Sequence record: PP925825.1
Source of the DNA: Escherichia phage SaltyDalty
Length of the DNA: 36,900 nucleotides
Direction: 5' to 3' (one strand)
Shown here: positions 1,530-1,588 of the stretch, piece after piece
Layout of the letters: each line of letters opens with the position of its first letter
How positions within the stretch are numbered: the first letter of the stretch is position 1
Notes under the pieces: generated by a model
The model's input: the letters and a program-made list of their open reading frames with translations, nothing else
What the model was told of the DNA's origin: nothing
Databases searched by the model: none
Made by a program: the position numbers and the translations under genes

Positions 1530-1588
1530 AGCTGTCTCCTGGAAAAAGAAAAACCGCCATCAGGCGGGTTCGTTGGGTGAATTAATTG

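Follow-up and report, generated by a model that had tools for sequence, protein, structure and literature searches.

A GC-rich hairpin followed by a run of T's lies just upstream of the major tail (tube) gene in the late structural operon of Escherichia phage SaltyDalty. This element is very probably the conserved HK97-type terminator between gp11 and gp12. It is therefore already known, as its orthologue in HK97 has been annotated from the time that genome was deposited; its wide conservation and its covariation, which we describe below, are useful support for the annotation, but they do not change its category. We propose that the element is a true intrinsic (Rho-independent) terminator which is read through by Q-modified polymerase, and we consider this to be probable. 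We hold a specific selected function, either insulation against unmodified polymerase or mild polarity, more tentatively, at somewhat under an even chance.

The hairpin between the gp11-like gene and the tube gene

We analyzed a window of 36,900 nucleotides (PP925825.1). SaltyDalty is an HK97-like lambdoid phage, and its late structural genes are all on the minus strand. These genes encode the small subunit of the terminase (8213-7728), the large subunit of the terminase (7721-6207), the portal (6210-4933), the protease (4927-4238), the major capsid protein (4235-3078), a gp6-like protein (3043-2717), a head completion protein (2717-2379), an HK97-gp10-like protein (2382-1933), a gp11-like tail completion/terminator protein (1936-1589; PFam Tail_completion_gp17, a homologue of HK97 Gp11), the 147-amino-acid tube protein (1529-1086), and the assembly chaperones G and T (1077-407). 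A small ORF in the moron slot (410-60) comes next, and then the tape-measure gene, which lies across the circular junction, so that its ATG (36900-36898) occupies the final three bases of the window.

A first-pass annotation had placed the hairpin inside the structural operon and just upstream of the major tail gene. The protein families agree: the ORF at 1529-1086 (minus strand) matches PFam Phage_TTP_11, Phage_tail_3, and Phage_tail_2, and its product is about 94% identical (amino acids) to the N-terminal part of the major tail subunits of the HK97 group. The tube protein of SaltyDalty lacks the C-terminal Ig-like domain of HK97 gp12 (235 amino acids), and the homology to HK97 ends at around position 1109. 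The hairpin that lies 3' of gp12 in HK97 and HK542 is also missing from SaltyDalty, where the gap between the tube gene and G is 8 nt.

The gp11-like gene and the tube gene are 59 nt apart, and here the coding strand reads TGA-CAATTAATTCACCCAACGAAC-CCGCC-TGAT-GGCGG-TTTTTCTTTTT-CC-AGGAG-ACAGCT-ATG, from the stop codon of the gp11-like gene (1591-1589) to the start codon of the tube gene (1529-1527). After a spacer that is C-rich and G-poor (1571-1588), the stem-loop (1554-1567, minus strand) is formed by CCGCC at 1567-1563, a TGAT loop at 1562-1559, and GGCGG at 1558-1554; this is supported by the sequence, by a scan for terminators, and by folding. (On the plus strand, the same positions read CCGCC at 1554-1558, ATCA at 1559-1562, and GGCGG at 1563-1567.) The U-tract TTTTTCTTTTT (1543-1553) is directly 3' of the stem, and the Shine-Dalgarno sequence of the tube gene, AGGAG (1536-1540), begins 2 nt past the U-tract. 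So the GC stem and the T-rich run on the minus strand are where the first-pass annotation put them. Its distance of 11 nt from the hairpin to the ribosome-binding site was approximately right: measured from the end of the stem to the Shine-Dalgarno sequence, the distance is 13-14 nt.

The element looks like an intrinsic terminator, with a GC-rich stem, a short loop (within 3-8 nt), and a U-tract on the sense strand. Specifically, 10 of the 11 nucleotides immediately 3' of an all-GC 5-bp stem with a 4-nt loop are T. The terminator scan recovered the hairpin as a site on the minus strand only. A local fold of 33 nt has a free energy of -10.6 kcal/mol (z = -3.25), which was equalled by just 1 of 200 shuffled sequences, and the energies of the stem-loop ranged from -9.9 to -10.6 kcal/mol across folds. 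However, a scan of 6 kb identified 14 terminator-like sites, where 7.3 ± 2.7 were expected from shuffles. A single 5-bp hairpin is weak evidence by itself, barely above chance, and it is the comparative data that decide.

Several other roles for the hairpin can be rejected. A bidirectional or plus-strand terminator is rejected because the plus strand continues past the stem with GTTCGTTGGGTG, which is not rich in T, and because the scan reported the minus strand only. The scan found no promoter-like site near 1500-1600 on the minus strand, so we rejected an independent tail operon with its own promoter after the hairpin. The first-pass annotation had also suggested that such stem-loops might be attenuators. 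In the regulated sense, this does not hold: an 81-nt fold contains no competing helix (antiterminator) that overlaps the stem, the spacer upstream is just 18 nt, and no Rfam family matched the site at the gathering level. (A permissive Rfam scan of 1400-1700 gave only noise, with a best E of 2.5.) RNase III processing sites of the T7 type need about 20 bp or more of double-stranded RNA, so an intercistronic RNase III site was rejected as well: the stem has 5 bp in SaltyDalty and 9 bp in the consensus of its relatives.

The DNA that flanks the element matches HK97 at 93% identity. In the GenBank record of that phage (AF069529; Juhala et al. 2000), a feature at 6692-6719, lying after gene 11 and before gene 12, is labeled "terminator, putative." Equivalent annotations are present in HK75, mEpX1, HK446, HK633, HK544, HK106, and mEp234, and in HK542 the feature is labeled as a "rho-independent terminator." The junction, the strand, and the downstream Shine-Dalgarno sequence and ATG are the same in HK97 and in SaltyDalty. 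The HK97 hairpin is AACCCGCC-AGAT-GGCGGGTT followed by TTCTTTTT, while the SaltyDalty hairpin is AACCCGCC-TGAT-GGCGGTTT followed by TTCTTTTT. The two differ at just 2 bases: one is in the loop, and the other is a change from G to T, with which the sixth G-C pair is lost (-10.6 kcal/mol instead of -16.1).

This second change is at position 1553 (minus strand), which is T in SaltyDalty and G in most relatives, where it closes the sixth G-C pair. The longer stem that is known from relatives, (G)AACCCGCC / GGCGGGTT(T), would extend over 1551-1570, but in SaltyDalty it is broken by the mismatch of 1553 with 1568. The consensus stem of the family has 6 G-C pairs and 3 A-U or G-U pairs, or 9 bp in all, and folds at -16.7 kcal/mol, compared to -10.6 kcal/mol for SaltyDalty. 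The variant at 1553 is common to just 2 of 80 close relatives. By these comparisons, the SaltyDalty copy is a weakened allele, and its 5-bp stem (about -10 kcal/mol) may terminate poorly.

Conservation of the hairpin and its T-run

We collected the regions upstream of the tube gene from 303 loci in IMG/VR, which represent four subfamilies of tube proteins (like those of the window and HK97, of HK542, of Morganella, and of Burkholderia phage KS9). We added twelve phages from GenBank whose tube proteins are down to 38% identical (amino acids), and one at 29%. These include 164 distinct upstream sequences of 110 nt. In 162 of the 164, from both enterobacterial and Burkholderia phages, we found a GC hairpin followed by a T-run (at least 5 T's in 8 nt), and the two exceptions are variants with a single mismatch. 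As controls, we used 3018 windows of 112 nt from the same loci: the same combination occurred in about 6% of these (5.8% for the sense strand and 6.4% for the antisense strand). The hairpin upstream of the tube gene is always in the sense orientation.

Although the structure is conserved, the sequence of the stem is specific to each lineage (CCCGCC, GACCGC, AGCTGC, GCCACC, GACCGTC, or GGCCCGC). RNAalifold recovers the hairpin from an unbiased MAFFT alignment of 41 representatives, which was not fitted to the structure and so avoids circularity. MAFFT misplaces gaps 3' of the stem, so we scored just the five core pairs. Four of these five pairs have changes on both sides (compensatory changes), and 97.6% of the cells in the alignment of the 41 representatives are paired. 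The covariation score was 0.396, compared to 0.147 for shuffled alignments (none of 500 were as high) and at most 0.085 if the partners were slid. Together with the presence of the hairpin in 162 of 164 sequences, these substitutions indicate that the structure is maintained by selection across the relatives.

We also considered that the hairpin might be due to chance, or that it might be a recombination linker that acts at the DNA level, at a mosaic boundary, with no function in the RNA. A 5-bp hairpin with a T-run is common, as discussed above (14 sites in 6 kb instead of 7.3). There is also a mosaic joint nearby, because some relatives whose tube proteins are 99% identical carry a different intergenic sequence (the L016 type). 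However, the replacement sequence again has a hairpin and a T-run. Together with the contrast between 162 of 164 and the 6% background, the compensatory changes, and the constant orientation, this makes a linker hardly credible, and the conservation and covariation refute a chance hairpin.

The position of the hairpin relative to the tube gene varies little. In all four subfamilies, the end of the GC-closed stem is 19-28 nt from the ATG (median 22 nt), and there is a motif like the Shine-Dalgarno sequence 11-15 nt past the stem. The only relative without the gap that holds the element is the most distant one examined, Pseudomonas phage PARCL1pr, with 6 nt between the genes.

This constant spacing raises the possibility that the element is a translation module, in which the U-tract 5' of the Shine-Dalgarno sequence would be a binding site for ribosomal protein S1 (an enhancer or standby site), and the hairpin would keep the U-tract unstructured and so boost the synthesis of the tube protein. 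The U-tract abuts the Shine-Dalgarno sequence in all four subfamilies, and in KS9, the capsid gene too has this arrangement 23 nt ahead of it. However, hairpins with U-tracts also precede genes for low-copy proteins (the tape measure, J, and gp17 of KS9), and in compact phage genomes, any intergenic element will be near the next start codon. Furthermore, V of lambda is highly expressed without a hairpin. We consider a translation module to be very unlikely.

In the enterobacterial relatives, the spacer before the hairpin is C-rich and nearly free of G (for instance, CACCCAAC, CCCACCATAAC, or CACCATCAC), which is not seen in the Burkholderia relatives. Such a composition may simply keep the spacer from competing with the GC stem, or the spacer may be a signal in its own right.

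Similar hairpins in the structural region

Five gaps in the structural region of SaltyDalty are over 20 nt. Four of these hold a GC hairpin followed by T's on the coding strand, and the fifth is the scar of a deletion. At the 3' end of the portal gene, just before the start of the protease gene, GAGCCCCGT-AATG-ACGGGGCTT is followed by a T-run (4935-4956, minus strand). In the gap between the capsid and gp6-like genes, AGGAGGGCGGG-GTAA-CCCGCCCTTTT (3049-3074, minus strand) is followed by only four T's. HK97 has putative terminators at both of these places; its record lists them at the 3' end of the portal gene, after the capsid gene, after gp12, and after the gp15 moron. A third hairpin, AAAAGCCC-GTTGAT-GGGCTTTT, with a T-run (17-43, minus strand), is between the ORF at 410-60 and the start of the tape-measure gene.

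The first-pass annotation had noted a comparable hairpin before J, and there is indeed one: AAGCCAAC-TTCG-GGTGGCTT (33478-33497, minus strand), with a tract of seven T's (33471-33477, minus strand) that ends 9 nt before the start codon at 33461. The downstream gene (30285-33461, minus strand) encodes a J-like tip attachment protein or central tail fibre of 1058 amino acids, with PFam domains FNIII-A_GpJ, Phage_Tail_Tip, and Phage-tail_3. At its I/J junction, HK75 has an annotated terminator, GCCACC-TTCG-GGTGGC-TTTTTT, which is orthologous to the hairpin of SaltyDalty; the latter has one internal mismatch relative to the GCCACC-TTCG-GGTGGC of HK75 and HK446. Thus, "terminator-like" was a good description of both hairpins: they are of the terminator type, on the coding strand, and located where curated records from the HK97 family have annotated terminators.

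Some of these gaps have other features. The hairpin in the capsid/gp6-like gap (3044-3077, minus strand) is strong, but our scan missed it, as it has just four T's. The only sequence like a Shine-Dalgarno sequence for the gp6-like gene (GGAGGAGG) is in the 5' arm of this hairpin, over 25 nt from the ATG, and folding of the hairpin would bring it nearer to the start codon. The ORF at 60-410 (minus strand), with 116 amino acids, has an N-terminus like a signal peptide and several cysteines, but no match in PFam. It fills the slot between T and the tape-measure gene, which in HK97 is the position of the superinfection-exclusion moron gp15, and it is followed by its own hairpin and T-run (43-17). 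An 88-amino-acid ORF (33516-33782, minus strand) matches phrog_2571, whose function is unassigned, and lies between the remnant of I and the terminator before J; in HK75 and HK446, I is directly followed by this terminator, with no such ORF between them. The 88-amino-acid ORF looks like an insertion of the moron type, although we found no promoter-like site for it. In contrast to the hairpins that follow these two ORFs, the hairpin before the tube gene has no promoter or foreign gene upstream, so we rejected the idea that it is a moron-associated terminator.

Across the HK97/KS9 family, there appear to be two classes of hairpins. Hairpins with U-tracts are upstream of gene starts: before the capsid, tube, and gp17 genes in KS9, and before the protease, tube, tape-measure, and J genes in SaltyDalty and HK97. 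Hairpins without U-tracts are 3' of a capsid or tube gene: after the capsid gene in KS9, and after gp12 in HK97. (The hairpins that define these classes are at 16327-16352, 17646-17670, and 19389-19407 in KS9 (L324) and at 7443-7462 in the record of HK97 (L001).) In HK97 and KS9, no good U-tract follows the hairpins that lie 3' of the capsid and tube genes, so the T-run before the tube gene is not a free by-product of having a hairpin, and its retention along with the stem supports a terminator.

This bears on another explanation, which is that the hairpin affects the stability or processing of the mRNA. Once the U-tract had been cleaved, the stem-loop could block 3' exonucleases from entering the segment upstream, or, as a 5' hairpin, it could protect the processed mRNA of the tube gene; either would raise or set the half-lives. 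A single-stranded U-rich tract beside a stem is a plausible site for RNase E. And the hairpins do bracket genes for abundant proteins: they occur before the protease and capsid genes and after the capsid gene, on both sides of the tube gene in HK97 and HK542, and before the capsid and tube genes in KS9. However, the hairpins that most resemble pure stabilizers (3' of gp12 in HK97 and 3' of the capsid gene in KS9) have no U-tract, while the hairpin before the tube gene has kept its U-tract in 162 of 164 sequences. Also, the stem is too short for RNase III. Overall, we judge that a role in stability or processing is unlikely.

Another part of the tail module of SaltyDalty is missing. The window represents a complete lambdoid genome of about 36.9 kb in circularly permuted form, broken at neither cos nor att. 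In Aeromonas phage AsXd-1, the match to the end of the window (30752) runs straight into the match to its start (30753). SaltyDalty lacks three tail-tip genes (M, L, and K); in addition, I is without its 5' half and the tape-measure gene without its 3' end (33961-34108, within 33779-36900). On one side, 34109-35451 aligns to the tape-measure gene of HK446 (97% identity), and on the other, 33783-33960 aligns to the 3' part of I (81% identity). The scar has 148 nt in place of about 3.2 kb, which leaves a tape-measure ORF of 932 amino acids and a remnant of I with 89 amino acids. We interpret this as an apparent deletion, which would leave the tail module defective. An exact search for the junction of H and I gave no match among the viral contigs in IMG/VR.

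The hairpins before the tube gene and before J each have a single substitution, relative to related phages, that weakens the stem: the change at 1553, and, at 33491-33492 (minus strand), GCCAAC instead of the GCCACC of HK75 and HK446. Two weakened stems along with the deletion of tail genes may reflect relaxed selection in a defective element, but with only two sites, this could equally be a coincidence.

Two genes for glycosyl- or glucosyltransferases (phrog_854 at 9494-8901 and phrog_1579 at 11481-10024, minus strand) lie between the lysis genes and the HNH/terminase genes, and are cargo of the lysogenic-conversion type within the late region. A terminator-like hairpin on the plus strand (9959-9981) is between these two genes.

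Antitermination by Q and a proposed role for the hairpin

SaltyDalty encodes a late antiterminator of the Q type (14952-15767, minus strand; phrog_127, E = 3e-100; PFam PF03589 Antiterm, E = 2e-54). Downstream of Q and ahead of the holin gene (14304-13909, minus strand), we found a promoter-like site (14910-14881, minus strand) and, in the terminator scan, four terminator-like hairpins (14840-14817, 14807-14786, 14564-14545, and 14379-14358, minus strand; -12.3 to -15.9 kcal/mol). The same region matches the sRNA family STnc100 (14737-14534, minus strand; Rfam RF02076, 59.3 bits), and one of the hairpins in the cluster ends this match. A promoter-like site and a cluster of hairpins after Q is the classical arrangement of a lambdoid late promoter (PR' and then tR' in lambda).

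In lambdoid phages, it is antitermination by Q that turns on the late operons (PMC2629481). In one account, the late promoter is described as constitutive, with transcription terminated just downstream during lysogeny (PMC7547250), and another describes processive antitermination as allowing the polymerase to pass multiple terminators (PMC8191782). A polymerase that passes the cluster next to Q should also pass the hairpin before the tube gene, which is weaker or similar and is 13 kb downstream.

We propose that as late RNA is made, the GC stem would form while the U-tract occupies the RNA-DNA hybrid. Polymerase that lacks the Q modification would then be released, and would stop short of the ribosome-binding site of the tube gene. 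Such unmodified polymerases might arise from leak-through at the late promoter in lysogens, or might start from spurious promoters or from the promoters of morons, whether in a lysogen or in early infection. After induction, Q-modified polymerase would pass this terminator and the similar ones at the end of the portal gene, after the capsid gene, before the tape-measure gene, and before J, with at most a modest fraction of the polymerases being lost at each. The transcripts from read-through would keep the hairpin as an intercistronic stem-loop. From the structure, orientation, orthology, and conservation of the element, and from its context with Q and the cluster of terminators, we infer termination itself, its suppression by Q, and which consequence was under selection. 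One point against a terminator is that there is no obvious promoter or moron just upstream for it to insulate. Also, a search of the literature found nothing relevant on the mapping of transcript 3' ends for HK97-like late operons.

The first-pass annotation had suggested that internal stem-loops might tune the stoichiometry of structural proteins. In its simplest form, a fixed fraction of Q-modified late transcription would end at each element, so that the tail genes would receive less mRNA than the head and neck genes. The element does have the anatomy of a terminator, it is one of five elements in the same orientation that are spaced along the operon, and partial termination is one of the two possibilities that were named for similar elements in phage L (PMC8022706). 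However, assembly requires far more copies of the tube protein than of gp11, or of any of gp6-gp11, which are encoded just upstream, so a step down at this position runs the wrong way and tuning fits poorly. Furthermore, the genes for the low-copy terminase and portal are upstream of every terminator, and Q-modified polymerase is expected to read through. Also, Sampson et al., in 1988, reportedly attributed the relative expression of the late genes of lambda to the initiation of translation. A stoichiometry attenuator thus seems improbable.

Another idea is that the unit of hairpin, U-tract of about 10 nt, Shine-Dalgarno sequence, and ATG is a dedicated device for expressing the virion proteins with the highest copy numbers, and is not primarily a terminator. 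Its constant location (19-28 nt ahead of the tube gene, and 23 nt ahead of the capsid gene in KS9) could point to a role in the expression of the downstream gene. The mRNA would be cleaved just upstream, the hairpin would be the 5' stabilizer, and the U-tract would be a landing pad for the ribosome (via S1). If true, this would explain how about 200 tube subunits are made for every 6 subunits of gp11 from a single polycistronic late mRNA. We think that such a device is quite unlikely.

Terminators within lambdoid late operons are a recognized feature. The terminator-type element before the tube gene is structurally selected and nearly universal in HK97-type tail modules, from enterobacterial to Burkholderia phages, and lambda does without it. 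This makes it a defined test case for the role of terminators inside antiterminated phage operons, a question that is open in the literature. It also suggests caution when cloning or refactoring this tail module, as polymerase that comes from the head genes and lacks Q would be expected to stop short of the tube gene.

Stem-loops are known beside highly expressed structural genes in other polycistronic units, including T-phi of T7 (after the major capsid gene), the REP between malE and malF, and the Rhodobacter puf operon, where they cause partial termination or segmental stability. But T-phi acts on T7 RNA polymerase, and is after the abundant gene, not before it, and the REP and puf hairpins lack U-tracts.

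Phage L, a P22-like phage, has predicted Rho-independent terminators at the ends of modules, within an antiterminated late operon with a single promoter (PMC8022706). The authors of that study considered partial termination or the stopping of transcription that is not antiterminated, and stated that the roles of these terminators are unknown. Phage L belongs to another group, the junction is the end of the procapsid module, and there is no sequence relationship.

SaltyDalty shares the logic of lambda tR' and 6S RNA, with the Q gene followed by promoter-proximal terminators (four in SaltyDalty) and a short leader RNA (the STnc100 match). But tR' is the regulated gate of the lambda operon, while the hairpin before the tube gene is about 13 kb downstream of the corresponding terminators. 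In KS9, which has the hairpin before its tube gene, PFam recognized no Q-like protein among the candidate ORFs. The gap between U and V of lambda is 7 nt and has no hairpin, although lambda does have one just after its capsid gene E. Because lambda uses Q and yet has no hairpin between U and V, the element is not required by Q-controlled operons in general.
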